From assembly GCA_041640595.1 (NCBI GenBank), contig JBEPZY010000013.1, forward strand, positions 1 through 26,145: a DNA stretch of 26,145 bases. The letters are read 5' to 3'. Made by a program: the position numbers and the translations under genes. The stretch's first letter is position 1. The number at the start of each line of letters is the position of its first letter. Of the stretch, positions 10,315 through 26,145 are shown in pieces. This DNA comes from Gemmatales bacterium (lineage in GTDB: Bacteria; Planctomycetota; Planctomycetia; Gemmatales; HRBIN36). The notes under the pieces are model-generated. The model ran no database searches, had not been told where the DNA came from, and saw only the letters and a program-made list of their open reading frames with translations.

Positions 10315-11277
10315 CTATGACGGCATTGCAGACGAAGATACAGGCCGATCATCTCCAGCTCGTACTGCCGCTCTCAATTGCTCCCTGGCCAGATCCGCTT
10401 GCTTCCTCTGCCACTCCATCTCCTGTCTCTGCCTAGCAGCCCAGTCTCGCCACACCTCCCCCACGGATCTCCCTTCGGCCTCGTACTCCGCCCGCTTCAG
10501 CCTCGCTCGTTCCACCTCTAGAGAGTGCAGCCACCACAGGTATTCGTTAGTGTCTACAAACCGTCTCCGCTTCCGTCTTGGCTTGGCCTTGAACAGCCCC
10601 TTGAGCAGCCCCATGAACCACCGGCACAGCTCGCCAAGGGACTTCACCCACCCAGGCACCCTGAGCTTGTGTGCCAATCCCCTCAGCTTCTCGAAAAGCT
10701 TTAGCGCGTAGGTGCACGTCTTGCCCTTGAGGTGCCGGCCCACCAGGGCCGTGCAGATTCTTAGGTAACCTTTGGGCAGCGTAGAGTTCCCTAAGGTCTC
10801 CCGGAAGGCCTTCATGCACCGGTTCCACTGCTGGCGGTTTGCCGGAGAGATTATCTCCCCCGACATGGCCTCAGGCCTATCACCCGAAGGGTGTATATTA
10901 TTTAACTTCATCCTATACCTTGTAGGGGGGTGACACTTTTTCTGCGCGACTGCTTCACGCTTTTGGGGCTTGCGCCAGTTGAGCCAATAGACGGAGTGCT
11001 TGCCCCGGCCGGTTCTAGATTGGTGTAAGAAGAGCAGCCTCACCTTCTGTAAGAAGGCGATGGCCTTGTAGACGGTCTTGCGGGAGAGGCCGGTCTGGAC
11101 ACTGATCTGGCAGGCGTCCAGCTCGAAGAATCCCTGCTGGTCCGCAATCATGTAGAGATAAGCGAAGACCCGGCGTGCACTCTCCGAGCGCTGAACAGCG
11201 AGCACCTTGGGGAGTTGGAAGGTTCCGGGGACCGGGGACTTGACTTTTTGACAAAAATCCCTTATACTGGTTTTCAC
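10315..11277 (-). CDS. Winged-HTH protein, probable replication initiator (Rep-like 1)
   Basis: QISVQTGLSRKTVYKAIAFLQKVRLL...GRGKHSVYWL wHTH; very basic; plasmid backbone context; start uncertain. Confidence 0.6.
   Translation of the reverse strand: MKTSIRDFCQKVKSPVPGTFQLPKVLAVQRSESARRVFAYLYMIADQQGFFELDACQISVQTGLSRKTVYKAIAFLQKVRLLFLHQSRTGRGKHSVYWLNWRKPQKREAVAQKKCHPPTRYRMKLNNIHPSGDRPEAMSGEIISPANRQQWNRCMKAFRETLGNSTLPKGYLRICTALVGRHLKGKTCTYALKLFEKLRGLAHKLRVPGWVKSLGELCRWFMGLLKGLFKAKPRRKRRRFVDTNEYLWWLHSLEVERARLKRAEYEAEGRSVGEVWRDWAARQRQEMEWQRKQADLAREQLRAAVRAGDDRPVSSSAMPS
11240..11268 (+). promoter_or_regulatory. Promoter for an antisense RNA opposite Rep-like 1
   Basis: TTGACT-17-TATACT. Confidence 0.65.
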
Positions 11278-11410: not shown

Positions 11411-11800
11411 CTATTCGGTCTGCTGAGACAAGCCACGGGCAAACAGCCCCTTGAACCAGTCCACCACTCTCTTCCAGAACGGCTTACGCAGCTGCAAGAC
11501 CTTCATGTGCAGGACCTCAATTTGCCGGTTGGCCCGCTCAAGCTGGGTCCTCAAAGCTGATGCCATATCTGGTGTAATGTTATTCGCTATCATCTGGCAG
11601 GCATCAGTAACAGTCGGCACTCCGTCCTTGAGGTACTGCTGCACTTTCTTGAACATCTCGACATCGCTTTCACTGTAGATGTCCTTGTTGCCTAAGCCCT
11701 TCTTAGGATCAATGAGGCCGAACTTCTTGAGCGTGTTGCGCCAATACTGGACCCTGGTCTCACGCTCGGCAAGCTCCGCACAAAGCTCTTTGAAATCCAT
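11411..11800 (-). CDS. MerR-like HTH + coiled coil + amphipathic tail (RacA/pSK1 Par-like)
   Basis: MDFKELCAELAERETRVQYW...YSESDVEMFKKVQ; heptads LRTQLERANRQIEVL; tail KPFWKRVVDWFKGLF. Confidence 0.7.
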   Translation of the reverse strand: MDFKELCAELAERETRVQYWRNTLKKFGLIDPKKGLGNKDIYSESDVEMFKKVQQYLKDGVPTVTDACQMIANNITPDMASALRTQLERANRQIEVLHMKVLQLRKPFWKRVVDWFKGLFARGLSQQTE

Positions 11801-12036
11801 GCTATTTATATAGTTACCGTACCTGAAGACGAGGGGAAAGGACAGGCGTCACCTCGTACGGAGACTAGTGGGTGGTCAAACCTCTTGTTGGTCTAACGGG
11901 GTTGTTTCACCGGTGCTTGTGCGCCCGGTGCCAGGTGGTGACCCAAGCGCGCCGAGCGTCCCCTCAGCACACTGGTCTGCCAGGGCGGGAAGGGTACAGT
12001 GCGGTATCTTAGCAGTCCTGCCCCGATAGGTTGCGC

Positions 12037-12079
12037 TTGCATCTTAGGTAACCATTGTGATATACTTGGTTACCTAAGA
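12037..12079 (+). promoter_or_regulatory. Promoter embedded in a 13-bp inverted-repeat operator
   Basis: TTGCAT-18-TATACT with TG extension; TCTTAGGTAACCA (12042-54) and TGGTTACCTAAGA (12067-79). Confidence 0.7.
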
Positions 12080-12089
12080 AAGGAGGGCT

Positions 12090-12377
12090 ATGCCTCTGCC
12101 CCGACGCCTCCACCAGGATGTGCGAAAACTGAGCTCCCACCAGATCAAAGAGCTCCAGGCCATCCTCAAGAAGCTCCTCCACCACAAGGAGGGCATCGCC
12201 GAGCGACTCCCTAGCAGGAAAGGCACTCGGCACTACACCTACCGCCAGGAGTACGTCAAGTGCGGCAAGGAAGGCTGCAAATGCGCCCGGGGAAAAGGCC
12301 ACGGCCCCTACTGGTATGCCTACTGGAAGGAACAAGGCAAGCTCAAGAAACGATATCTTGGGAAGACCCGGAGGTGA
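12090..12377 (+). CDS. DUF6788-like zinc-binding protein
   Basis: YVKCGKEGCKCARGKGHGPYWYAYWKEQGKLKKRYLGK; RBS AAGGAGG. Confidence 0.75.
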   Translation: MPLPRRLHQDVRKLSSHQIKELQAILKKLLHHKEGIAERLPSRKGTRHYTYRQEYVKCGKEGCKCARGKGHGPYWYAYWKEQGKLKKRYLGKTRR

Positions 12378-12383
12378 TCGCCT

Positions 12384-12926
12384 ATGTTGCGTGTCAGGGT
12401 GCGCTACGAAGATGAGGAGCGCCGCAGGGAGCTGAAGAGAGCTGGCTTCCGCTGGAACCCTCAGCTCAAGCTCTGGGAGGGCCAAGACACCTCAGCTAAC
12501 CGGGAGCTGCTCGATCGGCTGGGGCTGGAGCCGGAAGCTCTCCCAGCTATCCCCCAGAGCGAGGAGGTAGACCGCAGGGATGAGGTGCGCCAGGAGCTGT
12601 TGCAGGATGTCGTCGGCGAGTATATCTACAACTTTACCACCAGGGAGGGCAAGCGCATCGTCGGGGTGAGCTGGGCCGGGGCCAAGCGCTTAGCCCAGAC
12701 TTATCTGCCGGGGCTGGATGTGGAGCTGGTGCGCGTCGACCAGAATGAGAGATGGATTGCCGTAGTAGTGAAGGTCAAGTGGGAGAAGGGCAGCGCCTTA
12801 GGAGCAGCGCAGATCCCAGCTACCGAGAGATTCGCCTACCCTATGGCGATCAACAAGGCACAGCGCAACGCGATCATGAACCTCCTCGATGCAGCCCTCA
12901 TCAAGAAGGCTATCAGGGGCACCTAG
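12384..12926 (+). CDS. DUF5710-like N-domain + Rad52/Sak-like annealing domain (putative)
   Basis: ELKRAGFRWNPQLKLW; C-part ending AYPMAINKAQRNAI; RBS GGAGGTGA. Confidence 0.5.
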   Translation: MLRVRVRYEDEERRRELKRAGFRWNPQLKLWEGQDTSANRELLDRLGLEPEALPAIPQSEEVDRRDEVRQELLQDVVGEYIYNFTTREGKRIVGVSWAGAKRLAQTYLPGLDVELVRVDQNERWIAVVVKVKWEKGSALGAAQIPATERFAYPMAINKAQRNAIMNLLDAALIKKAIRGT

Positions 12927-13095
12927 AGGGCTGATCCTACCTAGGAGGATTATCAATTGGAGGATTTTCAATGTAAAGGTGCTGATTCTGGCTATTGTGT
13001 TAGTATTGGCTACCCTAATCCTTCTCCTACTTTTCCCGAGTGCTTTCGCTCCTTCTATTGTTATCTTATCGCCGGTCGTGGTGGGACGGTAATTT

Positions 13096-13383
13096 TTATC
13101 GAGCTAGCAATAGAAAAATAAAGGCTATTATAACAAAGAAGAGAATCGGATAGTCTTGAATGATATGAATTAACCCCGCACTAGCCCCTCCGGTACATGA
13201 CTTCCCTTTTTTCTTGGCTGCCTTGCAACCCACAAGGACTGCTGATAATGGATCGTGATTGTATCTGCGATGAGCACGGCCGGGATACTTCTTCACTGGG
13301 CGATCTATAGCCGCGTGAACTTCATCGTAGTCATCACCAAGCAATAACTTAGTAAGTTTGCGATGCTGATATCTCTGTGGCAT
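13096..13383 (-). CDS. Small His/Asp-rich putative metal-dependent hydrolase with C-terminal TM anchor
   Basis: H7, VHAAID, HRRYNHD and HIIQD motifs, then ILFFVIIAFIFLLL. Confidence 0.6.
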   Translation of the reverse strand: MPQRYQHRKLTKLLLGDDYDEVHAAIDRPVKKYPGRAHRRYNHDPLSAVLVGCKAAKKKGKSCTGGASAGLIHIIQDYPILFFVIIAFIFLLLAR

Positions 13384-13406
13384 GGTTCCTGTCCCGCTAC
13401 TAAGAA

Positions 13407-13556
13407 CTAAAAACCAAAGAACTTTTCAAAAAAACTTCTCTTTCTGCGCGGTTGTCCAGCGTCGCTCCGCTTACGTCGCCAAGTGCCCTTCTTAGTTCGA
13501 GAACGAGCCTGCTTTCCGACGTGGGGCAAGTTGCAACCGCACCTGCGATCCGCCAT
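13407..13556 (-). CDS. 49-aa basic microprotein with amphipathic tail (absent from ORF track)
   Basis: RBS AGGAGGTGA; MADRRCGCNLPHVGKQARSRTKKGTWRRKRSDAGQPRRKRSFFEKFFGF. Confidence 0.75.
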   Translation of the reverse strand: MADRRCGCNLPHVGKQARSRTKKGTWRRKRSDAGQPRRKRSFFEKFFGF

Positions 13557-13593
13557 TTCCGTCACCTCCTAAATAACAGAGTGCTATTGATTC

Positions 13594-13622
13594 AATATAA
13601 AACTTTTCGGCCCAGATGTCAA
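13594..13622 (-). promoter_or_regulatory. Promoter for the 13556/13383 operon
   Basis: TTGACA-17-TATATT. Confidence 0.6.
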
Positions 13623-13684
13623 ACAATAGAAATATCAAGGTATTATAACATCAAATCCCAAATTACTGACGAGCATCTTTAGTG

Positions 13685-14323
13685 TTAGAAATAAACTATC
13701 TTCATGTGGGCTCTACCAAGACAACCTAACGAAGCTGGAAAACTAAAAAACATTTTTGTTTTTAGAAAGTTTTTTCTTATACGCTCTAACCAGCTTGTGC
13801 GCTCAACCTTTATAGCTTGTTCCAATTGCTTACCTATATCGAGTGCTTCACCAATCACAACCCTGAGATCAAACAACAGATCAGGGTAGAGATCAGATCG
13901 GGCATCTTCTTCAGTAGCCCCAAGGTCTACTTGTTGTTTCACTAGTTCAGAGGCATGGGAACCAGGCTTGAATGCAAGTTCATCTTTATATGAGTTTGCT
14001 TTCCTTAAGAGTTTGTAGAAACAGGTTAAAAGCTCATTCGTCCCTGGTTGCAATAAACCTAAATCACCTTGCACTCGATCATAAACATCTGTCTGGTAGT
14101 TCGTATACTGTTGCGGAACTCCTATTTTCCACGATCTTCGTTTTCTACTGCTCTCTCGTATATAACTGAGGTGTGAATGTGCTTCAGAGAGCTGTTTTAC
14201 ATTTAAGGAGATTTCTGGTTCAAGGCGGTTAAGTAGGTGATTTCGCTTACGGCGCTCCTTAGCTACTTCTCCTATTCCTAACCACTCTAGGAGAGCTTTA
14301 ATGAATTCCATAATCAACCACAC
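13685..14323 (-). CDS. Hypothetical helical protein in an AT-rich segment (start may be 14311)
   Basis: 212-aa ORF with no recognised motif. Confidence 0.6.
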   Translation of the reverse strand: MWLIMEFIKALLEWLGIGEVAKERRKRNHLLNRLEPEISLNVKQLSEAHSHLSYIRESSRKRRSWKIGVPQQYTNYQTDVYDRVQGDLGLLQPGTNELLTCFYKLLRKANSYKDELAFKPGSHASELVKQQVDLGATEEDARSDLYPDLLFDLRVVIGEALDIGKQLEQAIKVERTSWLERIRKNFLKTKMFFSFPASLGCLGRAHMKIVYF

Positions 14324-14700
14324 TCTTTCATCCTTGACACTAACCCATTATTGTCAAGGAGTGTACTCCGGAAGTGAGAGAAAGTCAAGAAGGGATCGGG
14401 GGTGGGGGTTGGGGAGATGGAGAGGGTAATGTCAAAGTCATATCCGAATCGGCTGAAATGAGGTATTTATGGTGCTCTTTCAAACACTTCTTTATCACAG
14501 TCAATAATTCGATTCTTTCGGCAATTTTGCTTGCAAACGGGAAGATGTCCATTTGTTTGGCGACCTCGTGCATTTCGTTCTGAATTGTGTAGGTTATATC
14601 TTCAAGAAGATTTTTAATTATCGCGATTATGGATTTGAATCAGGTAAGGAGCAACGCAGCCCCTCTTTTTTACTCTATAGTCTTGTGCTATACTTAAAGC

Positions 14701-14880
14701 ATGAAGCCTGAGAAGAAACCAAGGCTGAAGCAGAGGCGTCATCTTGTGCCGATCCTCATATCCCCGCGCTTTGAAGAGACGTGGATGGAGTTTCTGAAGC
14801 TCAAGCCAGCGTCACTCTCTCAGAACGCCTGGATTTGCTATGCCATAGAGAAGTATCACTGGAGCCGTCCTAGAGATTGA
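14701..14880 (+). CDS. 59-aa RHH-like regulator, probably leaderless (absent from ORF track)
   Basis: TGCTATACT 6 nt before ATG; LVPILIS...SLSQNAWICYAIEKY. Confidence 0.55.
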   Translation: MKPEKKPRLKQRRHLVPILISPRFEETWMEFLKLKPASLSQNAWICYAIEKYHWSRPRD

Positions 14881-15812
14881 TGGAGGAGAGCTATGGGGTA
14901 GATAACATGGCTGATGTCGTAGTTCAGGTTTCAGGGCTGACCAAAATATATAAAACCGGAACCCAGGCTCTCAAGGGAGTCAGTTTTTCGGTTCATCGAG
15001 GAGAGATATTCTGCATATTAGGACCTAACGGAGCGGGCAAAACCACTCTCCTAAGGATTCTGGCTACCCAGCTTGAGCCTAGCAGCGGTGAAGCCCTCGT
15101 TCTTGGATTCAGCGTCCTTAGCCAAGTATCATCGATTCGCAATCACATTGGCGTTGTACCACAAGAAGCCCTCCCTGATCCTGAGCTTACTCCTTGGGAT
15201 CACGTATTCTACTACCTTCTTTCGCGAGGAGACTCGGTAAAGGAAGCTAAATACAGGGCAAAATGGGCGCTAGAAGTAACCGAGCTATGGGATCAAAGGG
15301 GCATAGCTACCGCTCATCTTTCAGGGGGAATGAGGAAGAGAGTCTTAGCAGCTATGGCCATTGCCACTAGAGCACCTCTACTCTTACTCGACGAGGTGTC
15401 TGCTGGGCTGGACCCATTGAGTAAGAGAGCACTATGGAAAGCACTTTTTGAATTGAAAGCCGAATCTACAATCATCCTCACGACACACTCCATGGATGAA
15501 GCTGAAGCGCTGGCAGATAGGGTTGCCATAATGAATCAGGGGCGTGTGCTGAAGGTGGGGTCTCCTCAAGAATTAAAAGAACTGATTCATGTAAAGCGCA
15601 AGATCATACTGCTAAACTCTTCTATGCTTGATGAGTTTAGCGTGCTTGGTAGGATTGAGTCTTACGGCGGTAAGACCATAGTTTATCCCCAGAATGGCCA
15701 GGCAATGGAACAACTCCTTAGCCAGGCAATGGAGAAGGATATTGAGATCCTAATACAGCCCATAACACTTGAAGATGTTTTCATCAAATTGATCAAAGAG
15801 GATGAAGGATGA
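14877..15812 (+). CDS. ABC transporter ATP-binding protein, DrrA/CcmA-like (start may be 14907)
   Basis: GPNGAGKTT, LSGGM, LLLLDE and TTH motifs. Confidence 0.95.
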   Translation: MMEESYGVDNMADVVVQVSGLTKIYKTGTQALKGVSFSVHRGEIFCILGPNGAGKTTLLRILATQLEPSSGEALVLGFSVLSQVSSIRNHIGVVPQEALPDPELTPWDHVFYYLLSRGDSVKEAKYRAKWALEVTELWDQRGIATAHLSGGMRKRVLAAMAIATRAPLLLLDEVSAGLDPLSKRALWKALFELKAESTIILTTHSMDEAEALADRVAIMNQGRVLKVGSPQELKELIHVKRKIILLNSSMLDEFSVLGRIESYGGKTIVYPQNGQAMEQLLSQAMEKDIEILIQPITLEDVFIKLIKEDEG

Positions 15813-16543
15813 GACTAGCGTGGCAAATAGCATCCATATCGATGATGTTGGCGCTCCCTACGCTACGTCACCCCCTTTGGCATCTAACAATCTCAGTGAT
15901 TCCTGCAAGTCTCTTTTTTGTCTTTTGGCTGATCGGAGGAATCGACCTAGGACGCCATGCACTCTTAGGCGCATTAGTCGCTATTGCCGTTAATGCCGGA
16001 ATTGTCTCCCTACCTCAGCTAATTGTGGGGCTCAAGCACAGACGCTTACAGGATATGTTCATTGCAAGTCCTGTAGGGCCCGTGGCCTATGCCATGGGAA
16101 CAGCACTCTCTCGTTTAATTTACGTTTCCCCTTTGATCATAATCGTCTTGCTCATCCTTACCTTAGGAGGTTTCATACCAATACGGAGCCTTCCTATGAT
16201 TGCCTTAACGCTCATGATGACATGGTGGGTGGGCAGCTTTTTGGGCTTCACTATATCTACGTATATAAGCAACATAGTATATATCTCAGGTGTTTCAAAC
16301 TTGCTAGGCTTGCTCCTTAACCTTATACCTCCCGTGTATTATCCGTTGAGCTTGGTTCCAAATGAATTTAGCTGGCTGGCATTACTCATCCCAACCACCC
16401 ATGCGGCTCAGCTGGTCCGAGCTTATGCTGGCACAGTCAACACTGGAGTTTGGGATCTAATTTTGAGCTGGCTAGCGCTGGTTATATATGGCGTCATCTG
16501 TAGCCTTCTTGTCGCCTTCAGAAGCCGTTGGCGTGAAGCTTGA
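15809..16543 (+). CDS. ABC-2 type permease
   Basis: About 6 TM segments; PPVYYP...LIPTTH motif; ATGA overlap with the ATPase. Confidence 0.9.
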   Translation: MRLAWQIASISMMLALPTLRHPLWHLTISVIPASLFFVFWLIGGIDLGRHALLGALVAIAVNAGIVSLPQLIVGLKHRRLQDMFIASPVGPVAYAMGTALSRLIYVSPLIIIVLLILTLGGFIPIRSLPMIALTLMMTWWVGSFLGFTISTYISNIVYISGVSNLLGLLLNLIPPVYYPLSLVPNEFSWLALLIPTTHAAQLVRAYAGTVNTGVWDLILSWLALVIYGVICSLLVAFRSRWREA

Positions 16544-16768
16544 AGTGCGCCCCGAATTTTGGAAAAAGGAGTTAATCAAGTATCCTGGTCCAAAAGGCTC
16601 GTGTAATATGCTATCAACCGATCAGTGGGGAAGAATCTGCCAGTCGGCATCGCCTCAGTTCGGCCCGGTGTGCAGGCCCAGCGAAACGTAAGGGTCCAGG
16701 AAGTCGCAACTTCCCTTTACACCATAGCACTTGACATATTTTGCTCAAAAAGATACAATCATCCCGAC

Positions 16769-17398
16769 ATGACCCAGAAATCCCCCGGCCGCCCACGAGC
16801 CCTCCGCTGCTTCGGCTATGCCAGGGTCTCTACCGTCAAGCAGGTGGAGACCCCAGGAGGGATCCAGGCCCAGGTCGAGAAGATCAAGAAGTTCTGCGAT
16901 CTCCATCATTACCAACTCCTTAAGGTCTTCAAGGACGAAGGGATCTCAGCCATCGATGAGCGGCCGGCCTTCACCAAGATGATGGCAGCTGTGGCGCGCA
17001 AGGAAGCAGATGCCGTCATCGTCACCCGCCTTGATAGGCTGGGCCGTTCCGTCCTAGACCTCGTCTCAACAGTGACGGAGCTGCAAAGGCAAGGCTGTCA
17101 GTTCATCGCCTTGGAGCAGAACATCAACACGACCACAAGTGAGGGGAGATTGCTCTTCAATATCTTATCTGCCTTTGCAGAGTTTGAGCGAGAGATCATC
17201 AAGGAGCGGATGCTGGCTGGCAGGATGCGAGCCAGGGAGCACGGGGTGATAGACCATCGGCCGAGGCTGAACATCCCCTTAGATGAGCTCAAGGATTTAT
17301 ATTTCAACCGCAAGCTCTCGGTGACCGCCTGTGCCAAGTTCTACAGATGTTCTCGGCAGACAATCTATGAGAGGTTAAAAGAGATCCGTAAGTCTTAA
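16769..17398 (+). CDS. Serine recombinase (resolvase/invertase family)
   Basis: GYARVST, RLDRLGRS, AFAEFEREIIKER and a C-terminal HTH; TTGACA-17-TACAAT at 16731-16759. Confidence 0.95.
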   Translation: MTQKSPGRPRALRCFGYARVSTVKQVETPGGIQAQVEKIKKFCDLHHYQLLKVFKDEGISAIDERPAFTKMMAAVARKEADAVIVTRLDRLGRSVLDLVSTVTELQRQGCQFIALEQNINTTTSEGRLLFNILSAFAEFEREIIKERMLAGRMRAREHGVIDHRPRLNIPLDELKDLYFNRKLSVTACAKFYRCSRQTIYERLKEIRKS

Positions 17399-17680
17399 AA
17401 CGCTCCATCGTTCGTTCCTCATTCCGAAAAGGTTTCACCTGGGGATTTCGACTTCGTAACGGTCTTCACACGGATGCCTGATCGTGCTAGAACGTCTTCC
17501 CCTATAGACCCGCCCCCCTGTGCGCTCGGTAGGGGGCTTTTCTCTCCACCACAACGCGCCCATGGTGAACCGGTCCACGACTCGCATCATGTAACGTCCG
17601 TTAGTGGGCATAACGCCTCCTCGGCCGGCCCTCTTGCATCTGGGCATTCATGGCCATATAATGAGCCATGGGTGATAGCC

Positions 17681-17938
17681 ATGTTAAAGGTCCCCTTGGC
17701 CGAAGCAAAGAACAAGCTGACCGAGTTGATTCGCCAGGTGGAGGCTGGCAAGCAAGTGGTGATCACCAAGCGCCGCAAGCCCGCGGCCCGGCTCCTCTCC
17801 GAGGCCACATATGAGCAGCTCCAAAAGAGGTTGGCCGTGGCCGGACTCCAGGCCCTCAGGGATCGCTGGCGGGCCGCCGGAATCAAGGCCCAGGATCTTC
17901 ACCAGGAGTCTCGACGCCTCCTGGAGGAGCGGACGTAG
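17681..17938 (+). CDS. Phd/YefM-family antitoxin
   Basis: VPLAEAKNKLTELIRQVEAGKQVVITKRRKPAARL. Confidence 0.9.
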   Translation: MLKVPLAEAKNKLTELIRQVEAGKQVVITKRRKPAARLLSEATYEQLQKRLAVAGLQALRDRWRAAGIKAQDLHQESRRLLEERT

Positions 17939-17940
17939 AA

Positions 17941-18429
17941 GTGAAAGTGGCCGATCGCAGGCGCAAGGGGGAGCCGGGGCGAGCCCCGCTCTATGTGATC
18001 GACGCCAGCGCGCTGCTGGCGGCCTTCCTGCCGGAGGAGGACTGGGAGGCGGAGGCCGATGCCCTCTTGGAAGGCTGGCAGGAGGGGAAGGTGCGGCTGG
18101 TGGCGCCGACGCTCACCTCCTATGAGATCCTCAACGGCCTCTACATCGCGGTGCGAGGCAAGGCGGGGCGGCCGCCCCGCCTCACTGAAGCGGAGGCTTC
18201 TGAAGCCTGGGCACTCTTTCAGGGGCTGGGGATCCCTCAGGTGGGGGTGGAGGAGGTGGCCACGGACGCTTTGGAGTTAGCCTTCCAGCACCGGTGGCGG
18301 AGCGTTTATGATATGGCCTATGTGGCGTGGGCCAAGAGGCTTAACACAAAGCTGATTACAGCGGAGCCCCCTCTGGCAGAAGCCTTCCCCAAGTGGACCC
18401 ACCTCATCTGGGAGCCCTTAGCATTATGA
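17941..18429 (+). CDS. vapC: VapC/PIN-domain toxin
   Basis: YVIDAS...YEILNGL...SVYDMAYVA...LITAE. Confidence 0.9.
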   Translation: MKVADRRRKGEPGRAPLYVIDASALLAAFLPEEDWEAEADALLEGWQEGKVRLVAPTLTSYEILNGLYIAVRGKAGRPPRLTEAEASEAWALFQGLGIPQVGVEEVATDALELAFQHRWRSVYDMAYVAWAKRLNTKLITAEPPLAEAFPKWTHLIWEPLAL

Positions 18430-18553
18430 GTCGCTGGAGCCCAAGGCGCCGTGCCACCTGGGGTGAGGGAGGCTGACGTGACACGCCAGGGGGACAAACC
18501 TGGTTCACAACTCCTAGCTTAAGGAAGGCGTTCGCCACTTTGCAGTCGTCGTG

Positions 18554-19141
18554 CTATAATGACTGCTCTTTGCTTTTGCCCTGACAGACCGGACTGATCC
18601 GAGGGGCTACCCCCCTAGCTGTCAGATCCGTGCGGGCTCTGGAGTCGATCATCTTGAGCAGTTTCATCTTTTGATCAGGTGTAAGGTGATCCCCTAGCTT
18701 TATAGATGGCCGTTGGTTGCGATGGTGGGTTGAGGGTCTTTTCCCCAGTTGTTGGCCAACGTAGTGGCGCCCTAGCTCGTGATCTTTGATCTTCCGTCCA
18801 TACCAGTCTTTAAGTTGCTTGATCTTGGCAGCATGGGATTCCCTTTCTTGCTTGAGCGTTGCTTCCAGACTTCTAACTTTTTCTTCGAGCAATTTGATTC
18901 GACAGTGAGCTCGATCCACCTGAGCTTGGTATTCTTGGGCCTTTTCAGCCCACCGCACTTCAGGGTCAGCTGCAAGGTCAATGAGCTGATTAAGAGCCTC
19001 GATGTCTCTCTTTATCTTGTCTTGAAGCTCCATGAGAACGGTGACTTCCGATTGATCATCTTTTGTCTTCTTGCGATCAAGCCTACGTTGAAGCTCGTCG
19101 TAGCACTCTTGTATGTCTTCTTTAAGAGAGTTAAGTCCCAT
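18554..19141 (-). CDS. Coiled-coil hypothetical protein
   Basis: RBS AAAGGAGG; long heptad repeats. Confidence 0.75.
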   Translation of the reverse strand: MGLNSLKEDIQECYDELQRRLDRKKTKDDQSEVTVLMELQDKIKRDIEALNQLIDLAADPEVRWAEKAQEYQAQVDRAHCRIKLLEEKVRSLEATLKQERESHAAKIKQLKDWYGRKIKDHELGRHYVGQQLGKRPSTHHRNQRPSIKLGDHLTPDQKMKLLKMIDSRARTDLTARGVAPRISPVCQGKSKEQSL

Positions 19142-19376
19142 AATTGGGCCTCCTTTCTTTATGAATGAAGACGCCCTTGGGAAGCACTCTTAGCAAAGAA
19201 GTGCAACCCGAGGGCGTATCTGTATCTATGCTGTTATTGAGACTTGTGAGCTAAGCTCAGGAAACCGACTGAGAGTGTGAGGGTATAATACGCGCGCACG
19301 CGCGCGTGTTAATAAAAATATAACGCGCGTATATATATATATATTAGGGAAATTGAGACCAGAAGCGGACAAACTC

Positions 19377-19405
19377 ATTCTAGCACGAGATCGGCTTGTT
19401 GTCAA
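19377..19405 (-). promoter_or_regulatory. Promoter upstream of the 19141 gene (about 230-nt leader)
   Basis: TTGACA-17-TAGAAT with TG extension. Confidence 0.6.
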
Positions 19406-19471
19406 GCCCCCCTGAAAGAGGCTTCCCTAGCGTATTTTCTGATCAATGGCCACTTCGAGGGCCACTTCGAG

Positions 19472-19677
19472 CTGTCAGTGTCCGAGTATCGCGATTTTGA
19501 GCGCTTGCCACCGGCTGAGTCTCGGTCCCTGTCCCGCGGACGCCGGGGCCGGGAGCGCGGGGATTCGGGCGAGAGTCTCGTCGAGTTTAGCCCTTAGCCA
19601 CGCGTTCTCGCCCTTCAAGTATTCTATTTGCTCTTTCAGGGTGTGGATGAGGGCTTGCTCATCCCCTTGCTCGCGGC
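19472..19677 (-). repeat. 206-bp inverted repeat; partner spans the junction (25994-26019 plus 1-180)
   Basis: Reverse complement matches apart from three substitutions and a CAAGCC/CCAAGC change. Confidence 0.95.
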
Positions 19678-19951
19678 TCGCGCTGCTCTGCAGGGGGTCA
19701 GAGGAGCTTCCATTCGGGGATGGGTTTAGGTCTGCGGCAAGCTGTGAGCAAAGCTCTTGCAGACGAATACCCTGAGCACGTAAGTCCTTGGCGCGTTCTA
19801 AGAGTCCGATAGCTTGAGGATTTATCAGCCATTCCCCGTGCGATCCGTAGCCTTGCATACCGTTGAGCAAGGGCTTGCAAGCATAGAGCAAGCGCCTCGC
19901 TTGCCACTCGGATAGTCCTAACCTGGCCGCTATTTCCTTGACGCTCAGCAT
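19475..19951 (-). CDS. HTH + coiled coil + amphipathic tail (Par/RacA-like 2)
   Basis: MLSVKEIAARLGLSEWQARRLL; LKEQIEYLKGENAWLRAKL; tail RLSRWQALKIAILGH. Confidence 0.7.
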   Translation of the reverse strand: MLSVKEIAARLGLSEWQARRLLYACKPLLNGMQGYGSHGEWLINPQAIGLLERAKDLRAQGIRLQELCSQLAADLNPSPNGSSSDPLQSSASREQGDEQALIHTLKEQIEYLKGENAWLRAKLDETLARIPALPAPASAGQGPRLSRWQALKIAILGH

Positions 19952-20033
19952 AGCAAGAGCGTAGCGGTTCAGGGTTTAGCTTGTCGCCGACGTCGGTCTG
20001 GGAGGGTAGGGAAATTGGGGACCTCTCTCGGCA

Positions 20034-20051
20034 ACGTGAACCGGTTCACGT
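20034..20051. repeat. Perfect 18-bp palindrome ACGTGAACCGGTTCACGT
   Basis: Read directly from the sequence. Confidence 0.9.
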
Positions 20052-20168
20052 CTTCACGCGCGCGCGAGGACAGGTCCATAACGAGAGGGGGTTTCACAAG
20101 AGCTATGCCGGTTGGGAAGGGCGATGGCGGTGATGGTGCTGGGGTGTCGGGGACCCGACAAAGAAGAC

Positions 20169-20196
20169 CAGTGAAGCTGGTTCACTGAATACCCCC
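20169..20196 (+). repeat. Left inverted repeat of the sigma cassette
   Basis: CAGTGAAGCTGGTTCACTGAATACCCCC versus reverse complement of 21687-21713, CAGTGAACCGGTTCACTGAATACCCCC. Confidence 0.85.
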
Positions 20197-20351
20197 CTTG
20201 ACTGAGATAACCCTATGAGACTCAAAATCCCGGACATTTCAACAACGATGGTCTACGTCCATATGGCAGGCACAGCACTCAGAGAAGCGCACGCCAAGGC
20301 CAGCCCCGTGGATAGGTTGCTGGGGGGATAGACTAGAAGCTTATGAGTTGA

Positions 20352-21299
20352 TCAATATATACTTTTGCTTTCGTACTTCAACCATAGATCACGCAGTTGC
20401 TCATATCTCCCCCACCGCCACCATGCTCCTTGCAACTTCTCTATCCCCTTGATCTCGATCTGGCGTACCCTCTCTCTGGTGATGTTGAAGACGCGCGCCA
20501 CGTCCTTGAGCGTGCGCTGGTGGTCATCTTCGAGACCATAGCGTAGTCTAAGAATCTCTTTCTCACGACTGCTTAACTGATTGAGCACCCGATGGAGTTC
20601 TTGAGACAAGGCTGCGCTAGCTAACTCTGCAGCCAGTGAAGGTGCCTGTTCATCTTCTATCAAGTCCTCGAGCACCTCTTCGTCATTATCATTGTCAATC
20701 AGCTCTTCTAAGGATCTGGGAGGCAACCAATTCTGCTCAAGTAGCGCAATACGCTTGAGCCAAGCGATCTCCTTTTTATCTATGCCCAAGGCATCTGCAA
20801 GTTCTTTAGCTTTGGGCTCTCTGTGATATTGTTGAATATACTGTTCCCTGAATCGTTGCAGTTTACGAACAGAGACCCTTTTAGGAATACGAACTAACTG
20901 GGATTGTTCAGCAATGGCGCGCTGGATTGCTCGATGGATCAACAACCTTGCATACGTGCTGAATCTAGCGCCCCGTGTGTAAGCGAAAGTCTGTGCTGCA
21001 CAGATCAACCCTAGGCTCCCCTCTTGAATCAGATCCATCAGCGAGAGCCCTTGATATTTATACTTATACTTCACAGCGATTGATGCAACTAACCTCAGAT
21101 TTGACTCGACTAGAGCATTTCTAACCTCCTTATACCCCATCGCTGCGAGGGCAGCCATCAAATCTTCTTCTTCTTTTGAGAGCAAGGGGAACTTGCTTAT
21201 CTCTTGGAAATAAACTGAAGCTTGAAGGGTGTCATAGCACGCTTGTTTATCAATATCCCAATCTAATCTGTTGAGATCATCGTTCAAGTTTCGATTCAT
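20352..21299 (-). CDS. Divergent RpoD/SigA-like sigma70 factor (regions 1.2, 2, 3, 4)
   Basis: YFQEISKFPLLSKEEE, NLRLVASIA, DLIQEG, FSTYA, TRERVRQIE; likely start ATG 21299 (frame is open to 21434). Confidence 0.9.
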   Translation of the reverse strand: MNRNLNDDLNRLDWDIDKQACYDTLQASVYFQEISKFPLLSKEEEDLMAALAAMGYKEVRNALVESNLRLVASIAVKYKYKYQGLSLMDLIQEGSLGLICAAQTFAYTRGARFSTYARLLIHRAIQRAIAEQSQLVRIPKRVSVRKLQRFREQYIQQYHREPKAKELADALGIDKKEIAWLKRIALLEQNWLPPRSLEELIDNDNDEEVLEDLIEDEQAPSLAAELASAALSQELHRVLNQLSSREKEILRLRYGLEDDHQRTLKDVARVFNITRERVRQIEIKGIEKLQGAWWRWGRYEQLRDLWLKYESKSIY

Positions 21300-21686
21300 A
21301 ACTGCCCCTAGCTTGTTTGCTTCAAGGTTCCATACTCCATGCTGCAATCTAGGTTGCTTTGAAGCGGTTTTGGCCGAGACGAGAATTCGGGCTTGAATAC
21401 CCCACCCTTGGGCGGGGAGCTTCACTAGGCCCAACTATGTTAAGCAACTAAACTAAGGCGAGGCAAGTGTAGGGAAAACCTTGAAAATCCCTGCAGCTAT
21501 CCGCCTGCTCGCGCCGATGCTCGTACTTCGGCACCGTTTAACCAAGGGGCGAAGAAGCGGCTCAAACTGGATGCCCTCAGAAGGTGAACCTGAGTAGCAC
21601 TTACAAATTGGGCCTTGCGTAATTGTCGGGGGGCCTCGGCGTCTACCCTTTAGGGTGGGCGGCGGGGGTGGTGGTGGGTACGCGGT

Positions 21687-21714
21687 GGGGGTATTCAGTG
21701 AACCGGTTCACTGA
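21687..21714 (-). repeat. Right inverted repeat of the sigma cassette, containing the 20-bp palindrome TCAGTGAACCGGTTCACTGA
   Basis: Read directly from the sequence. Confidence 0.85.
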
Positions 21715-22115
21715 CGGAAGCCCCCACACCCAGGCCTGATCTGTGGTTAATGCTCGTGTGTCTTACCCCATAGACCCAAGGGGGGCTTAGGAGCTCCCCC
21801 CACTCTCATCATCAATCCAGCTCTCGATGACCTTCTCGCGCTTGCAGTCCACCGCCGTGACGACGTTGGATCCGTCGGTGTATTTGAGTAAGAGCGCGAC
21901 GTTGTGGCCCTTGTGAGCGGAGAAGGCTTCGAGGGCCTCGTCCACGTCTTTGACGTGAGCGACGACGACCGGGAGCCCCGCGATCTTGACTTGAGCGAAG
22001 GCCGGGATGTAAACTTGGGTGCCGTCTCTTGGGCCCTGGGCGATCCTCTGGATCAGGCGCTCAGGGCCGCTTCTTCCGTCCGCTTCTCGATGGTTGTTTG
22101 GATCATTGATCTCAT
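21695..22115 (-). pseudogene. Hypothetical gene with a -1 frameshift near 22062
   Basis: MRSMIQTTIEKRTEEAAL continues in another frame as ERLIQRIAQGPRDGTQVYIPAFAQVKIAGLPVVVAHVKDVDEALEAF; a perfect promoter sits directly upstream. Confidence 0.6.
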
Positions 22116-22124
22116 CTTGGCTAT

Positions 22125-22153
22125 ATTATAGCACGTATCGCACTATGTGTCAA
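22125..22153 (-). promoter_or_regulatory. Consensus sigma70 promoter
   Basis: TTGACA-17-TATAAT, 9 nt before ATG 22115. Confidence 0.75.
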
Positions 22154-22306
22154 GGGGGAGCCTGCTCTTTTTCTCGATTAATTGCGTGAAGACATTCGCC
22201 TGTTTTGCTCTTCAAGACGCTATTTGATTTTAGGGGCATTCGTCACCTTTTTCTCGACTTGACAACGATCCCGATAATGATATAATACCTGCTATGGTGA
22301 TCGGTA

Positions 22307-22555
22307 ATGTATCTCGCGAAGGGGTTCACAAGGCGTGCCAACGGAGACAAATGGATTTATTGGATGCTCAAAGAGAGCGAGTGGAACAAAGACGAGAAGC
22401 GTCCGGTCCAAAGATACCTGGCATACATCGGACCAAGGCCGGAACTCACGCTGGCCAAGGCGAAGCGGATCGCGGAGAAGCTAGGCAAAAGCCTTGAGGA
22501 GCTGCGCAAGGTGCGGGGGCTGAAGATCCTCGATGAAAGTGATGATGCGCGATAG
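22307..22555 (+). CDS. Small protein resembling the IS1634 transposase N-terminal domain plus helical tail (paralog A)
   Basis: MYLAKG...IYWMLKESEWNKDEKRPVQRYLAYIG; promoter TTGACA-16-TATAAT at 22259-22286. Confidence 0.75.
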   Translation: MYLAKGFTRRANGDKWIYWMLKESEWNKDEKRPVQRYLAYIGPRPELTLAKAKRIAEKLGKSLEELRKVRGLKILDESDDAR

Positions 22556-22658
22556 ACGGCTTTTGACCAGACCCCAAGTCCCTATAAAGCTCTCCCCATC
22601 GGCATTTTTTCTCATCACTCGCCTTGACGGAGTTTCACATCACTGCTATACTGGAACC

Positions 22659-22889
22659 ATGTATATTACCAGAATAGCTATTCAGCGAAGAAGCGGCAAG
22701 CAGTGGTCTTACCAGGTTCTACATGAGAACGCATGGGATAGGCAGAGAAAAAGGCCTATCCAACGCTATCTAGGGTACATTGGGACGAATCCAGAGATCA
22801 CTCTTGAGAAAGCGAAGGCGCTGGCGAGGTGCTTACATGTGGATCTCGACGACCTACGGAAGGTGAGGGGGTTGATGATTAGAGAATGA
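22659..22889 (+). CDS. Paralog B of the same family, leaderless
   Basis: MYITRIAIQRRSGKQWSYQVLHENAWDRQRKRPIQRYLGYIG; TTGACG-17-TATACT at 22624-22652, 6 nt before ATG. Confidence 0.75.
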   Translation: MYITRIAIQRRSGKQWSYQVLHENAWDRQRKRPIQRYLGYIGTNPEITLEKAKALARCLHVDLDDLRKVRGLMIRE

Positions 22890-22894
22890 AGCTC

Positions 22895-22978
22895 AAAAGC
22901 AGAGACCCCACGCTGTTGCCGCAGCGTGGGGTAGTTCCAACAGCCAAGGAAAGCTCCTCCTTTTTGGGGCCTCCTTGT
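22895..22978 (-). ncRNA. Putative antisense sRNA (about 80 nt) upstream of Rep-like 2
   Basis: Minus-strand TTGACT-18-TATAAT (22985-23014), then an 11-bp perfect stem ACCCCACGCTG/CAGCGTGGGGT (22905-22932) and CTCTGCTTTT. Confidence 0.5.
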
Positions 22979-23138
22979 GCATTTATTATAGCCCATTTTT
23001 ATGCCCCTAGTCAAGAGGCCTTTCCCCCCACCCTGATGACCAGATCGAAGCCGGGAGCTGCGAGATCATGTTTCAATACCACACTGGTCCAATGGAGCAG
23101 CGGCCCTGCCGGAGGAGGGCAGCTCGGAGGGAGATCCA

Positions 23139-24216
23139 ATGGACAGAAAGAGCAAGAACGGGTGGACTAAAATCCCCGCGGCCATTCTGGACTGCTCAGG
23201 CTTATCTTGGAAGGGGGAGTGGGTCTGGATCGTCCTGGCGTGGCACACCCGACCCGACCGGCCTGCCTGTTGGCCATCCCTTCAGACGCTCTCCCAGTGG
23301 GCTGGCCTGAGCGAGTGGGCTGTAAGACAGGGCTTGGAGGAACTGGAGAGGGCTAGGCTGTTAGTTATTGAGTCCTCAAGCTACAGAAGTAAGTTCTACA
23401 GGCCTCTCATACCCCCAGGACGTTGGATCGCTATTCCGAACACCCTCCTGGCAGATGAAGTCCTCAGTGTGGAAGACAAGCTCGTTTATATTCACCTCTT
23501 CAAAGACCTCCCTCGGCGTAAGAGGCTGGTCTCTAGAAGGCAGACAGAACTGGCCGAGGAGATGAGCCGCCTTATCCCTGGATTCACCCGCAGGCGGGTC
23601 CAGCTCGCCCTGGAGCGGTTAGAGGACTCTCACTACATCACCAGCACTTGGGGAGACCGCCGTAAACCCAAGGGCTACTCTCCCTGCCCCTTCCTGGGCG
23701 AGCCCCCTCAGCTTGTGGGTGATGATGTGCAACAAGCTGTGCCAGATCAGAACGGCAAAAACCCTGCGTCTAGACCCCATCTCTCACACGATCCACCCCC
23801 TCGCTCACACGCTGTTGCACCTCGATCTGATGCGGATTTTCACCACAAAATCGAGGGGGCTGTGTGCAACAGCGTGCAACAAGATATTGCAGATCAGAAC
23901 TGTGAAATCCCTGCGTCTGGCCCCCCTCTCTCACAACTAAGAAGTTCTTAAGGGGGAGACTGCTTCTTCTTCGCTGCCTGAGAGAAAAAAAATAGAAAAG
24001 ATAAGCTCTTCTGATGATCTTGCTCAAAACGGTCGCGATTTTCAAAATGACAGCTCTCATTCGAGTGAGTATCGCTTTCGCACGATTATCCGCTGGGCTC
24101 AAAAGAGGGGGTGGATCGAGATCAGAGACCCCTTTACCGGTGAATGGCATCAAGTGAAAGCATCAGATTGCCCCGAATGGGTTGTTCGAGAAGCTTCTTG
24201 CTATAAATCTGGCTAG
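23139..24216 (+). CDS. Tandem winged-HTH (HTH_36-like) replication-initiator-like protein (Rep-like 2), +1 frameshift near 23940
   Basis: WTKIP...CWPSLQTLSQWAGLSEWAVRQGLEELE; second unit WIAIPN...RRVQLALERLE; continues in the +1 frame as EVLKGET...WIEIRDPFTGEWHQVKASDCPEWV; span 1078 = 3n+1. Confidence 0.7.
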
Positions 24217-24346
24217 AAACCCCCTTAGGGGATAAAGCTAGCAACGGCCTTAATAGACCCCTAGCGGGGCTATGAGAACGCGATGAGAATGAAAGGCGGG
24301 CCTCTTGATTCTCGTACGCCGCCGCGCTAGACTGTCAGACAGGAAA

Positions 24347-24820
24347 TCATCCCCCTGCAAGGTAATCATCCAAGACCAAGATCGCGATCCCTTCGCCCTC
24401 CACCCTCTTCAGCCCTTCATCGTTCGTCAGGAAGGCCTTAGCCCCCTCCCTTAAGGCCGTGCCGAGCAGGAGGGCATCCGGGGTGCGAAGCCCGTATGCT
24501 CCCCTCAGGCGGGCAGCCTCCTTGGCGATCTCATAGTCCGGAGCCACGATGGTCGTGTGAGGCACCCCCTGGAGGAACCGTTCACAGGCCAGGACCTGCT
24601 CTTCCTTACCCAAGGCCAACGGCTTCACCAGGAGCTCGGTAACGGAGATCGTCGAGATCACACCACTGAACTCTCCCCTCGCTAGGAGGGAGAAGACGAG
24701 CTCTGTAAGCTTCGCATAGGGCATGAGGCCCTCGAGGTGGTAGATCAGGATGGAGCTGTCCAGCACCACCTTCCCATGCTGGACGAGCTCAGCGGCTAAT
24801 CTCTGGCCTTCTCGGCCCAC
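24347..24820 (-). CDS. vapC: VapC/PIN-domain toxin
   Basis: VLDSSILIYHLE...ISVTELLV...LRTPDALL...FLTND. Confidence 0.92.
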   Translation of the reverse strand: MGREGQRLAAELVQHGKVVLDSSILIYHLEGLMPYAKLTELVFSLLARGEFSGVISTISVTELLVKPLALGKEEQVLACERFLQGVPHTTIVAPDYEIAKEAARLRGAYGLRTPDALLLGTALREGAKAFLTNDEGLKRVEGEGIAILVLDDYLAGG

Positions 24821-25056
24821 GATGCCCTCTCCCCTTGGAGGTATAGCTTGATCTCCTCCCTTGTCCGGCCAAAGGTTCCTTTGAGCATCCCCCTGGTGGA
24901 GGAGGCATACTTCTCCGGGGTGAGGAGAACGGCCCGCCCCTCTTCCACAGTGATGATCAAGGGATCGCCCTCCTTGAGGCCGATGGCCCCACGGATCTCC
25001 TTCGGTAGGACCATCTGACCCTTCCTCCCAAGTTTGACTACCCTCGCTATGGTCAT
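24796..25056 (-). CDS. vapB: AbrB/MazE-fold antitoxin
   Basis: KLGRKGQMVLPKEIRGAIGLKEGD. Confidence 0.9.
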   Translation of the reverse strand: MTIARVVKLGRKGQMVLPKEIRGAIGLKEGDPLIITVEEGRAVLLTPEKYASSTRGMLKGTFGRTREEIKLYLQGERASWAEKARD

Positions 25057-25180
25057 CCTATATCACCTTGGTTTGATTATACAAGAAAAGTCTGTATCCC
25101 TGCAATCATTCAGACTAAGGCTAGGATTGTGAAGACTCAGCTTCAAATAACACCTTTCAAAAAGCTTCACTATTGAGGAG

Positions 25181-25378
25181 ATGCAGACCACAACGGCACA
25201 AAACGACTACTACCGCAAAGTCTTAGTGATCTCTGCTTCAAGTATGACTACACTTTGACCCCCGAGGACTGGCGGATCCTCGACGAAGCCCGCCTCGATG
25301 AAGAGGGCCTCAGCTACCAGGAGCTGCGCCAGCGGCTGGTGGATCTTTACCGCCGGATCAAGCGGGCATGCACTTAAT
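25181..25378 (+). pseudogene. Small hypothetical gene, frameshifted near 25222, homolog of 1112-1240
   Basis: MQTTTAQNDYYRKV continues in another frame as LSDLCFKYDYTLTPEDWRILDEARLDEEGLSYQELRQRLVDLYRRIKRACT. Confidence 0.6.
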
Positions 25379-26019
25379 ATATTATACCTAATTCACGCGC
25401 AAATGGACACCCCAAATACCAGTTTCTGTTGCCTGAAACGAACGGCCATTTATGCAAATCTATCAGATATCTCAAGCTGCTGCCTGCCCATATTTGTGGG
25501 CTTGTTTCAGAACATTGTCAAGACACACCCCCCTACCCTCAACCCTATAATCGCGACCGCAGGCGTCTGGGCCAGCGGATCTCCCTGACCTCGAAGATCT
25601 TAGCGAGGGGGCGGCTAAGACTTAGAGTCGGATTTTTGTGAAACCCCTTGATGCTCCTGCGCCGGCGCGCTAGACTCCCTATCGGGTGAAGGCCTCGCTG
25701 ATCTCTTCAGGTGGCCGGTGAGTAATCTCATACGGGGCCTTTCGGAATGATCGAGAGGATCGTCAAAAAGAGCCTAGGATGACACTCCACTTCCTTGGGA
25801 ATGATTGGCCCCCTATCCTTCGGGTGGGTGGAGGGAGCACCGCAGTGGGGGCTCACACGTTGCCAACCTGAGTGGGCATAATCGAGATCTCCTTGCGTAA
25901 TTGGTAAGGGGGCTGCCCCAGCAATGGCAAAAGAGGCCGCAGCGATCTTGTCCCTTGCTCGGCCGTCAGTCGCGATAGCCTTCCAATCGCACCGCCGCGA
26001 GCAAGGGGATGAGCCAAGC

Positions 26020-26145
26020 CTCATCCACACCCTCAAAGAGCAGATAGAATACTTGAAGGGCGAGAACGCGTGGCTAAGGGCTAAACTCGACGAGACTCTC
26101 GCCCGAATCCCCGCGCTCCCGGCCCCGGCGTCCGCGGGACAGGGA
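26020..26145. repeat. Terminal direct repeat (right copy)
   Basis: Identical to 1-126. Confidence 0.95.

Follow-up and report, generated by a model that had tools for sequence, protein, structure and literature searches.

A plasmid-like contig encodes a primary-type sigma factor with an eroded −10 surface

Introduction

Can a sigma factor on a mobile element let the surface that reads the promoter −10 element drift and still be kept by selection, and what would such a protein do? This question is raised by P0001, a divergent sigma70-family gene on the minus strand (20352..21299) of a contig of 26,145 nucleotides (nt) filed under a Gemmatales bacterium; the whole contig (G000:C13) is the stretch that we analysed and is called the window here. 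An initial annotation described the product as a plasmid-borne, RpoD-like sigma factor lacking its promoter-melting residues, and proposed either a decoy, which binds core polymerase and the −35 box without opening the promoter, or a sigma factor with re-programmed −10 specificity. No part of a primary sigma factor is more conserved than regions 2.3-2.4, and a natural, selected lineage in which the −10 surface drifts while the fold, the core interface, and the −35 helix are kept is unusual. As a tentative first choice, we regard P0001 as a melting-impaired sigma copy that would compete for core or hold −35 boxes and would not serve as a productive initiation factor; a working alternative sigma factor is nearly as likely.

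Domain Organization of P0001

The reading frame contains no internal stop, as annotated, and its ATG lines up with the start of P0002, one of the two homologs (P0002 and P0269) that form a clade with P0001; because P0002 begins at this ATG, a 360-amino acid (aa) version starting at TTG was dropped. Pfam matches at or above the cut-offs cover sigma70 regions 1.2, 2, 3, and 4, with sigma2, sigma3, and sigma4 in order, and the best NCBIfam models are those of RpoD, which bears out the RpoD-like character assigned to regions 1.2, 2.1-2.2, and 4.2. Every NCBIfam model lies below its cut-off among the 25 matches listed (NF006666 with 220 against 572 bits, TIGR02393 with 212 against 354), and region 1.1 has no Pfam match, about 22 residues preceding region 1.2. 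The closest solved structures are SigA proteins. A model made with AlphaFold2 (AF2) from a 10-sequence alignment has a helical sigma layout (mean predicted local distance difference test score 64, predicted template modeling score 0.41) and is weakest at residues 1-18, 133-142, and 184-220; Foldseek searches with it return SigA/SigS chains on top at low TM-scores of about 0.3. This model bears on the domain fold and is uninformative on melting. In the alignment every domain is still present, the acidic sigma finger among them, and by its sequence P0001 is a variant of the sigma70 family that belongs neither to group 1 nor to typical group 2 or 3. The gene and its regions are as follows.

20352..21299 (−): P0001, divergent sigma70-family gene, 315 aa (open frame, Pfam and NCBIfam matches, AF2 model)
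21138..21233 (−): region 1.2 (about residues 23-54), with two residues inserted when compared with Bipolaricaulota-type SigA (Pfam PF00140 at 23.9 bits, cut-off 22; alignment)
20994..21125 (−): regions 2.1-2.2, with D403, Q406, and E407 kept, N409 replaced by S, K392 by V, and R397 by Q, and a 2-aa insertion found in P0001 only (alignment)
20874..20993 (−): regions 2.3-2.4-3.0, where the −10 and extended −10 surface is eroded (alignment to Escherichia coli sigma70)
20727..20744 (−): in-frame insertion of about 6 aa ahead of the sigma finger, common to all three clade members (alignment)
20430..20603 (−): region 4, with an intact −35 recognition helix (R584, E585, R586, R588, Q589) (Pfam, alignment; 71% identical to the Bipolaricaulota-type SigA P0005)

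Erosion of the −10 Surface

Residues are numbered after E. coli sigma70, translated from NC_000913.3, and were compared with a background of 268 related sigmas (full-length search matches, mostly group 1/2-like, all spanning the regions concerned). The replacements that had been annotated are exact against this reference, namely K414 by C100, K418 by T104, W433 by L119, W434 by L120, Q437 by R123, and T440 by Q126 in the numbering of P0001. The losses even go beyond that list, as they include K392V, R397Q, Y425A, T432R, R436H, V454K, and H455R, a replaced R448, and a 2-aa deletion at about 457-458, just past the stretch 20874..20993, that removes E458. To speak of a protein lacking its melting residues is nevertheless too strong, since N383, R385, L386, Y394, F419, Y421, R423, F427, S428, T429, Y430, R441, and R451 are all kept. 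The annotated roles of K414 and K418 in melting, which we assume, were not found in the literature passages, and both are excluded from the contact-site list used below. Also kept are the core-binding residues D403, Q406, and E407 (listed in bioRxiv 10.1101/2020.09.07.285775) and the −35 readers R584, E585, and R588; these six, together with F419 and F427, are shared by P0001, P0002, and P0269.

In the background, the tryptophan pair W433/W434 (W-dyad) is nearly invariant (W434 in 268/268, W433 in 262/268), and arginine at 437 occurs in 0/268. Among positions conserved in at least 90% of the background, P0001 has changed 14 of the 29 within 414-462 against 10 of the 55 elsewhere (Fisher p=0.005), and the most-changed of the 268 background proteins has changed 10 of these 29. 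The 12 promoter-contact residues of Table 3 in Bae et al. 2015 (PMC4593229), each 99.4-100% conserved among the 1002 primary sigmas of that study, are changed at 8 positions in P0001 and at 9 in P0002; one of the 12 positions, 468, varies in the background already. P0005 and E. coli sigma70 are 82% identical in regions 2.3-3.0 and 39% in region 4; for P0001 and P0005 the corresponding values are 47 and 71%. The usual conservation gradient across sigma regions is inverted in P0001.

Relatives and Phylogenetic Placement

Searches in 5.8 billion proteins and 1.84 billion representatives gave as the only close relatives P0002 (311 aa) and the nearly identical P0269, each encoded on a short Logan contig and 67-68% identical to P0001, so that the clade counts 3 sequences in 2 clusters across the collections searched. 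P0002 was the sole further clade member among the 50% representatives; a targeted search of longer proteins gave high scores for P0001 and P0002 only, and no clade member was found among shorter proteins. In PLSDB every match fell below 60% identity among the matches listed (30 of 77 records, pBS32 not among them), 20 relatives of the binned genome held ordinary sigmas with at most 45% identity over long matches, and the ESM Atlas returned generic sigma clusters only. At the DNA level, metagenome contigs yielded 566 candidates, of which none was confirmed, with 0 hits in a scan for the clade motif; genome contigs yielded three distant sigmas only, and viral contigs distant sigmas only with 0 clade motifs.

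The best matches of P0001 are about 50% identical, and those named by organism are all Bipolaricaulota/Acetothermia sigmas. In quick maximum-likelihood trees, which carry Shimodaira-Hasegawa-like approximate likelihood ratio test (SH-aLRT) support only and include no group 3 rows, the clade falls inside a group with five named Bipolaricaulota rows at an SH-aLRT of 98, or 99 without positions 414-462. The phylogeny that had been suggested as a check places it in the group that holds Bipolaricaulota primary sigmas. Its stem is long (0.99 changes per site, 0.73 without 414-462), and its tip branches of 0.21 and 0.35 compare with a median end branch of 0.11. Judging from these trees, the likely origin of P0001 is a Bipolaricaulota host and its primary sigma; within that group, Bipolaricaulota-like paralogues of the P0050 type may also be the exact sister. 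P0050, P0205, and P0212 are diverged sigmas grouping near Bipolaricaulota SigA, and P0212, with YW at the dyad and several changes in region 3.0, displays a milder form of the same erosion.

P0001 and P0002/P0269 have in common K418T, K426R, W434L, R436H, Q437R, R397Q, R448Q, and the 6-aa insertion. They differ at 414, 425, 428, 429, 432, 433, 440, 451, 454, 455, and 458; the dyad reads LL or FL, and P0002 loses S428/T429 and R451.

Released or Re-programmed?

For this comparison we used 17 DNA-contact sites from the literature, the 12 of Table 3 in PMC4593229 together with Y425, T429, Y430, R436, and T440 (PMC4496690, PMC2613000). P0001 and P0002 differ at 9 of the 17, and P0269 and P0001 at 8. 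No control pair with 60-75% identity elsewhere reaches 9, be it cellular (0/4467, maximum 6) or viral (0/179, maximum 4), and the same is true of planctomycete FliA pairs at 60-80% identity from the 30 best-scoring loci (0/31, maximum 4). Over positions 414-446, P0001 and P0002 differ at 11 of 33, whereas FliA pairs at matched divergence differ at 7 or fewer (31 pairs). The small or hydrophobic scaffold positions within 415-453 are identical in 12 of 12 cases, on a list chosen after the data were seen, and the surface is still basic, with 14-17 lysines and arginines in the clade against 15 in SigA.

To us, the −10 surface of the clade looks released, not re-fixed. On these alignments, a kept fold with a drifting base-reading face would fit a lost sequence-specific −10 function somewhat better than one new specificity; specificities that diverged between plasmid lineages may also be compatible with the pattern. 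Because the DNA-facing −10 positions have diverged further between the two lineages than in any matched control pair, the comparison leans modestly toward a non-productive protein over a re-programmed one. This much of the annotated alternative stands; loss of melting is a prediction, with W433 mutants mild and Y430 and F427 kept. The W-dyad is universal in housekeeping sigmas, and alternative sigmas favor bulky hydrophobics there (PMC4593229). Loss of the pair alone is not diagnostic, because sigma28 and sigma32 lack the full dyad yet work, in agreement with the annotated remark that some group 3 sigmas without it stay active on near-consensus promoters. What speaks for impairment is that Y425, R397, R436, Q437, T440, and the extended −10 residues are lost in addition and that these positions are variable. 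Alanine at F427, Y430, W433, and W434 together blocks the open and not the closed complex (PMC10911233, citing Cook and deHaseth 2007).

Several points weigh against impairment. The 17-site list, drawn from papers, was fixed after the alignment had been seen; the control pairs are non-independent, and the clade supplies one independent pair. Remoter control pairs (45-60% identity) do reach 9 differences, in 31/22029 cellular and 2/220 FliA cases, and set against the rest of the protein (52/171), the excess at the contact sites (9/17) is not significant (p=0.10). P0002 also alters the conserved region 4 residues E555K, E591A, K593R, and K597E, so that relaxation is not limited to the −10 surface. 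W434L, R436H, Q437R, K418T, and R397Q are common to both lineages and could encode a new specificity. Y430, F427, Y394, R423, R441, N383, R385, and L386 are kept in all three clade members, which implies that part of the base-capturing apparatus is still constrained, and two of the four residues of the quadruple alanine mutant (F427, Y430) are thus present in P0001. The LL or FL of the clade fits the preference of alternative sigmas for bulky hydrophobics. Measured effects of single substitutions are mild as well, W433A slowing isomerization 2-3-fold at 37°C and about 7-fold at 25°C with initial binding unaffected, and W433L being slightly defective (PMC1919498). Other wedge residues serve in sigma28 and sigma32, with the ranking WW > HW > QR (PMC12784957, PMC10216364), and sigma28 is functional with I79/R80 at the dyad position. 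Finally, the heat of the hot-spring habitat could help melting, and near the sigma gene neither an anti-sigma nor any other means of controlling a competitor that might do harm was identified.

A working alternative sigma newly evolved from a primary one is a serious possibility, one that we hold to be quite conceivable. It would read TTGACA-type −35 boxes, melt more weakly, have an altered −12/−10 preference, and serve few, stringent promoters with the aid of heat, and the differences between P0001 and P0002 would then be lineage-specific promoter specificity. Koo and colleagues reportedly described, in 2009, stringent recognition by weakly melting sigmas. Besides the kept Y430, F427, Y394, R441, and N383/R385/L386, the bulky hydrophobics at 433/434, the retention of every domain with the acidic finger, and the functional sigma28 and sigma32, such a sigma would account for the H-R at 436-437 that both lineages share; known suppressors with altered −12 specificity include Q437H and T440I, and position 433 varies among FliA orthologues. 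It agrees less well with the 11 of 33 differences in 414-446, which exceed those of the matched FliA orthologues, with the additional loss of S428/T429 and R451 in P0002, and with the window itself, where no alternative promoter motif is seen and the genes have canonical promoters.

Selection or Decay

A captured SigA fragment that slowly decays under relaxed selection with no current role, its −10 loss having been selected for harmlessness, is unlikely. The high overall rate seen in the stem and tips, the rarity of the clade, and the position of the gene in a repeat-bounded module with lower depth than its flanks in the hot-spring run X1 all speak for it, and so do the changes at conserved sites outside the −10 surface (10/55 and 8/55) and the fact that protein databases list intact frames only, so that broken copies escape. 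On the other side, neutral point mutation of the P0001 gene to a 33% amino acid difference left the frame stop-free in 1 of 400 runs at each of two kappa values, whereas the clade has kept stop-free frames throughout a tree length of about 1.5 changes per site, with all indels among its members and relative to SigA in frame. Outside 414-462, moreover, the differences between P0001 and P0002 fall on 11 of 55 family-conserved against 34 of 81 family-variable sites (p=0.009), and the identity of the 12 scaffold positions, on the list noted above as chosen afterwards, also argues against decay. Homologs with many of the same substitutions, a search for which had been proposed as a check, do exist: simple decay is disfavored because these roughly 67%-identical proteins share many substitutions with intact frames and keep the core-binding and −35 residues, and the indirect tests favor selection on the frame. 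A sequencing artefact was ruled out, as a Logan contig of X1, possibly the source sample, is identical over 20294-22202 and the independent P0002 and P0269 share the pattern.

Very unlikely is a bait that soaks up anti-sigmas or phage inhibitors binding region 4 or 2.2 of SigA and so protects SigA with no need to read DNA, for although region 4.2 is almost identical to Bipolaricaulota-type SigA, 2.2 is kept, DNA-opening residues are lost, and anti-sigmas occlude such surfaces (PMC4598750), several region 4 residues are changed in P0002 and PADLOC gave no partner or defense context among 9 proteins scanned.

A Possible Dominant-Negative Sigma

If P0001 is indeed the melting-impaired copy that we tentatively favor, its expression would depend on a weak promoter upstream or on read-through, and it would bind core through sigma2.2 and sigma4, as the kept residues suggest. 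The resulting holoenzyme would dock on TTGACA-type −35 boxes and open promoters poorly. Less productive SigA holoenzyme might then be formed, with host SigA transcription damped by the tied-up core, or P0001 might sit on strong TTGACA promoters, e.g., the near-perfect ones of the plasmid itself, and repress them. Negative action by a sigma has been described for HrpL, whose holoenzyme occludes a neighboring promoter (PMC5263251). We put forward with more reserve, as an idea that may well prove wrong, that a plasmid turned a copy of the host housekeeping sigma into a natural dominant-negative pseudo-sigma, kept by selection to occupy core and −35 boxes with no opening of the promoter, as a global damper or a promoter-locking repressor; what the plasmid would gain, damping or promoter locking, is the least certain part of the proposal.

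If non-productive, P0001 would mean that a mobile element employs a sigma as a repressor; full-text searches of open-access papers turned up no such case, and neither this protein nor a naturally occurring non-melting copy of a primary sigma was described there. If productive, it would show an alternative sigma in the course of emerging from a primary one and would serve as a natural experiment on the smallest set of residues that melting at high temperature requires.

Promoters and Repeats Around the Sigma Gene

The sigma gene is bracketed by an inverted repeat and preceded by two promoter candidates and a small open reading frame (ORF).

20169..20196 (+): left arm of the inverted repeat (27/28-nt) (repeat search)
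21687..21713 (−): right arm, which holds a 14-nt palindrome (repeat search)
21437..21466 (−): weak sigma70-type promoter candidate, 8/12 consensus, about 140 nt upstream of the ATG (sole candidate in 21300-21720 at the threshold)
21787..22115 (−): small ORF upstream of the sigma gene, with a frameshift near 22053 in this copy (indel variants there in X1 contigs)
22125..22153 (−): perfect sigma70 consensus promoter with TG, facing the small frameshifted ORF and then the sigma gene (motif scan; a read-through candidate only)

Canonical promoters are enriched over 9000-26145 (26 against 10.9 ± 3.2 in shuffles), and the strict pattern occurs 11 times in the 26 kb contig against about 0.5 per 100 kb in large contigs. 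Near-perfect TTGACA-N16-18-TATAAT promoters stand, for example, at 22153(−), 22259(+), 23014(−), 2284(+), 19405(−), and 16731(+); two promoters of the contig are perfect with a TG motif and mutually divergent. Given this enrichment, the genes of the contig appear to be served by ordinary SigA. Behind its 55 TTGAC sites, no shared alternative −10 was apparent by eye.

The 14-nt palindrome, on which the bracketing inverted repeats are built, is also present at 20036-20049 and, with 1 mismatch, at 17565-17578; at up to 2 mismatches the contig holds 4 matches against 0.05 expected, and the other contigs of the bin hold none. It may be a recombination or operator site, and in one X1 contig 17432 is linked directly to 20076, close to two palindrome sites. 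An 18-mer of the inverted repeat was not found in viral contigs. At 14334-14357, two divergent TTGACA boxes, each followed by TGTCAA, form a palindromic, operator-like arrangement.

The Contig and Its Host

The sigma gene is likely plasmid-borne, as annotated, to judge by a terminal overlap of 126 nt and by the presence of toxin-antitoxin genes, a resolvase, and two genes of Rep-like proteins. The contig ends (25994-26145 and 1-180) lie in an inverted duplicate of about 200 nt, 97-98% identical, of 19472-19677, the 3' half of a helix-turn-helix (HTH)/coiled-coil ORF at 19475-19951, and because the terminal overlap falls inside this duplicated stretch, circularity is likely but stays short of proof. 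The segment between the two copies may be invertible or an assembly loop.

23139..23951 (+): Rep-like HTH protein (Pfam HTH_36; PHROG replication initiation families, best E 3e-11)
10315..11277 (−): second Rep-like protein (PHROG replication initiation families, best E 5e-6)
16772..17398 (+): serine resolvase (Pfam PF00239, E 2e-42)

Library scans of the window covered 26 ORFs in Pfam and 12 in PHROGs; they further matched HicA, Phd, two PIN toxins, a MazE/AbrB antitoxin, a MerR-type HTH protein, an ABC transporter, and large PKD/CARDB proteins, and no capsid or conjugation family. No related element was found with the ORF 19475-19951 in viral contigs or with 16500-24000 by blastn against plasmids, and Rfam gave no match. 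Cluster look-up of 10 neighbor proteins returned 7 singletons, 3 being not found.

Large, probably secreted proteins (DUF4384, PKD, BACON, M12-like peptidase, CARDB) occupy 3119-9719, where two ORFs end in tails that resemble an IPTL-CTERM sorting signal. A low-GC island (43-48%) at 13096-16543 with an ABC transporter pair and ORFs without an assigned family was apparently acquired separately. Small basic ORFs at 22307-22555, 22533-22889, and 9859-10041 have a similar C-terminal motif by eye, and the two that were scanned had no Pfam match.

The tetranucleotide correlation of the contig to the main contigs of its bin is 0.36 (155 chunks: mean 0.96, minimum 0.24). On this comparison, its planctomycete origin was rejected and the contig was probably mis-binned into a planctomycete genome. 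The main contigs carry a near match, with one mismatch, to a 16S primer motif which we take to be planctomycete-specific. Like this contig, C14 and C15 depart in tetranucleotide profile from the planctomycete-like main contigs and probably do not belong in the bin; C42 (2551 nt) also has a terminal overlap.

The sole listed run that holds the stretch is the hot-spring metagenome X1, and no RNA dataset is among the listed holders. X1 contigs match 20294-22202 without a difference, whereas variants and joints are numerous on either side, as would be expected if several related elements had modules in common. One X1 contig runs, by hand reading, from region 4.2 into a P0003/P0005-type SigA C-terminal tail, a weak hint that a Bipolaricaulota-type host shares the run.

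Comparison with Known Systems

Of the systems considered, MzaA of the MZA anti-phage system offers generic sigma70 similarity only, and membership was rejected, since P0001 has 315 aa against a 726-position model and 206 bits against a cut-off of 800. Among the 9 proteins scanned with PADLOC (P0002 and 8 window proteins), no other Mza component was found; the output was a generic sigma match to MzaA and weak matches (E >0.001) for one coiled-coil neighbor.

Group 1 RpoD/SigA, and Candidatus Bipolaricaulota most closely, shares with P0001 colinear regions 1.2, 2.1-2.2, 3, and 4, about 70% identity in region 4, and the −35 recognition residues R584, E585, and R588, present in all three clade members. 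Unlike group 1, P0001 has no region 1.1, has the W-dyad, Q437, T440, R397, V454, H455, and E458 replaced or deleted, scores below the RpoD cut-offs, and lies on a plasmid-like contig. Group 2 (RpoS, Mycobacterium SigB, cyanobacterial group 2) is alike in having region 1.2 and not 1.1, following the definition in PMC4598750, but it keeps group-1-like DNA determinants and promoters, which are eroded in P0001, and P0001 scores below the RpoS/SigB cut-offs. Group 3 (FliA/sigma28, RpoH/sigma32, SigB/F/G) is alike in its absent W-dyad and present sigma3, and can be functional, with weaker melting. It differs in that P0001 scores 100-130 bits against its models, under all cut-offs shown, groups with SigA in trees, keeps a SigA-type −35 helix, and varies more between orthologues in its −10-facing residues than FliA does.

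Among mobile elements, SigN (ZpdN) of the Bacillus subtilis plasmid pBS32 is plasmid-borne and inhibits SigA transcription by competing for core (PMC10601692). It is set apart by its description there as a productive sigma with its own promoters and regulon, whereas P0001 groups with primary sigmas. Host-like phage sigmas, such as the SigF/SigG-like proteins of Bacillus phages, are mobile-element copies that alter host transcription (bioRxiv 10.1101/2021.11.12.468384). Viral RpoD-like sigmas (IMG/VR L007-L084), compared by eye, are the reverse of P0001: most of those fetched keep regions 2.3-2.4 with WW and have a strongly diverged region 4.2.

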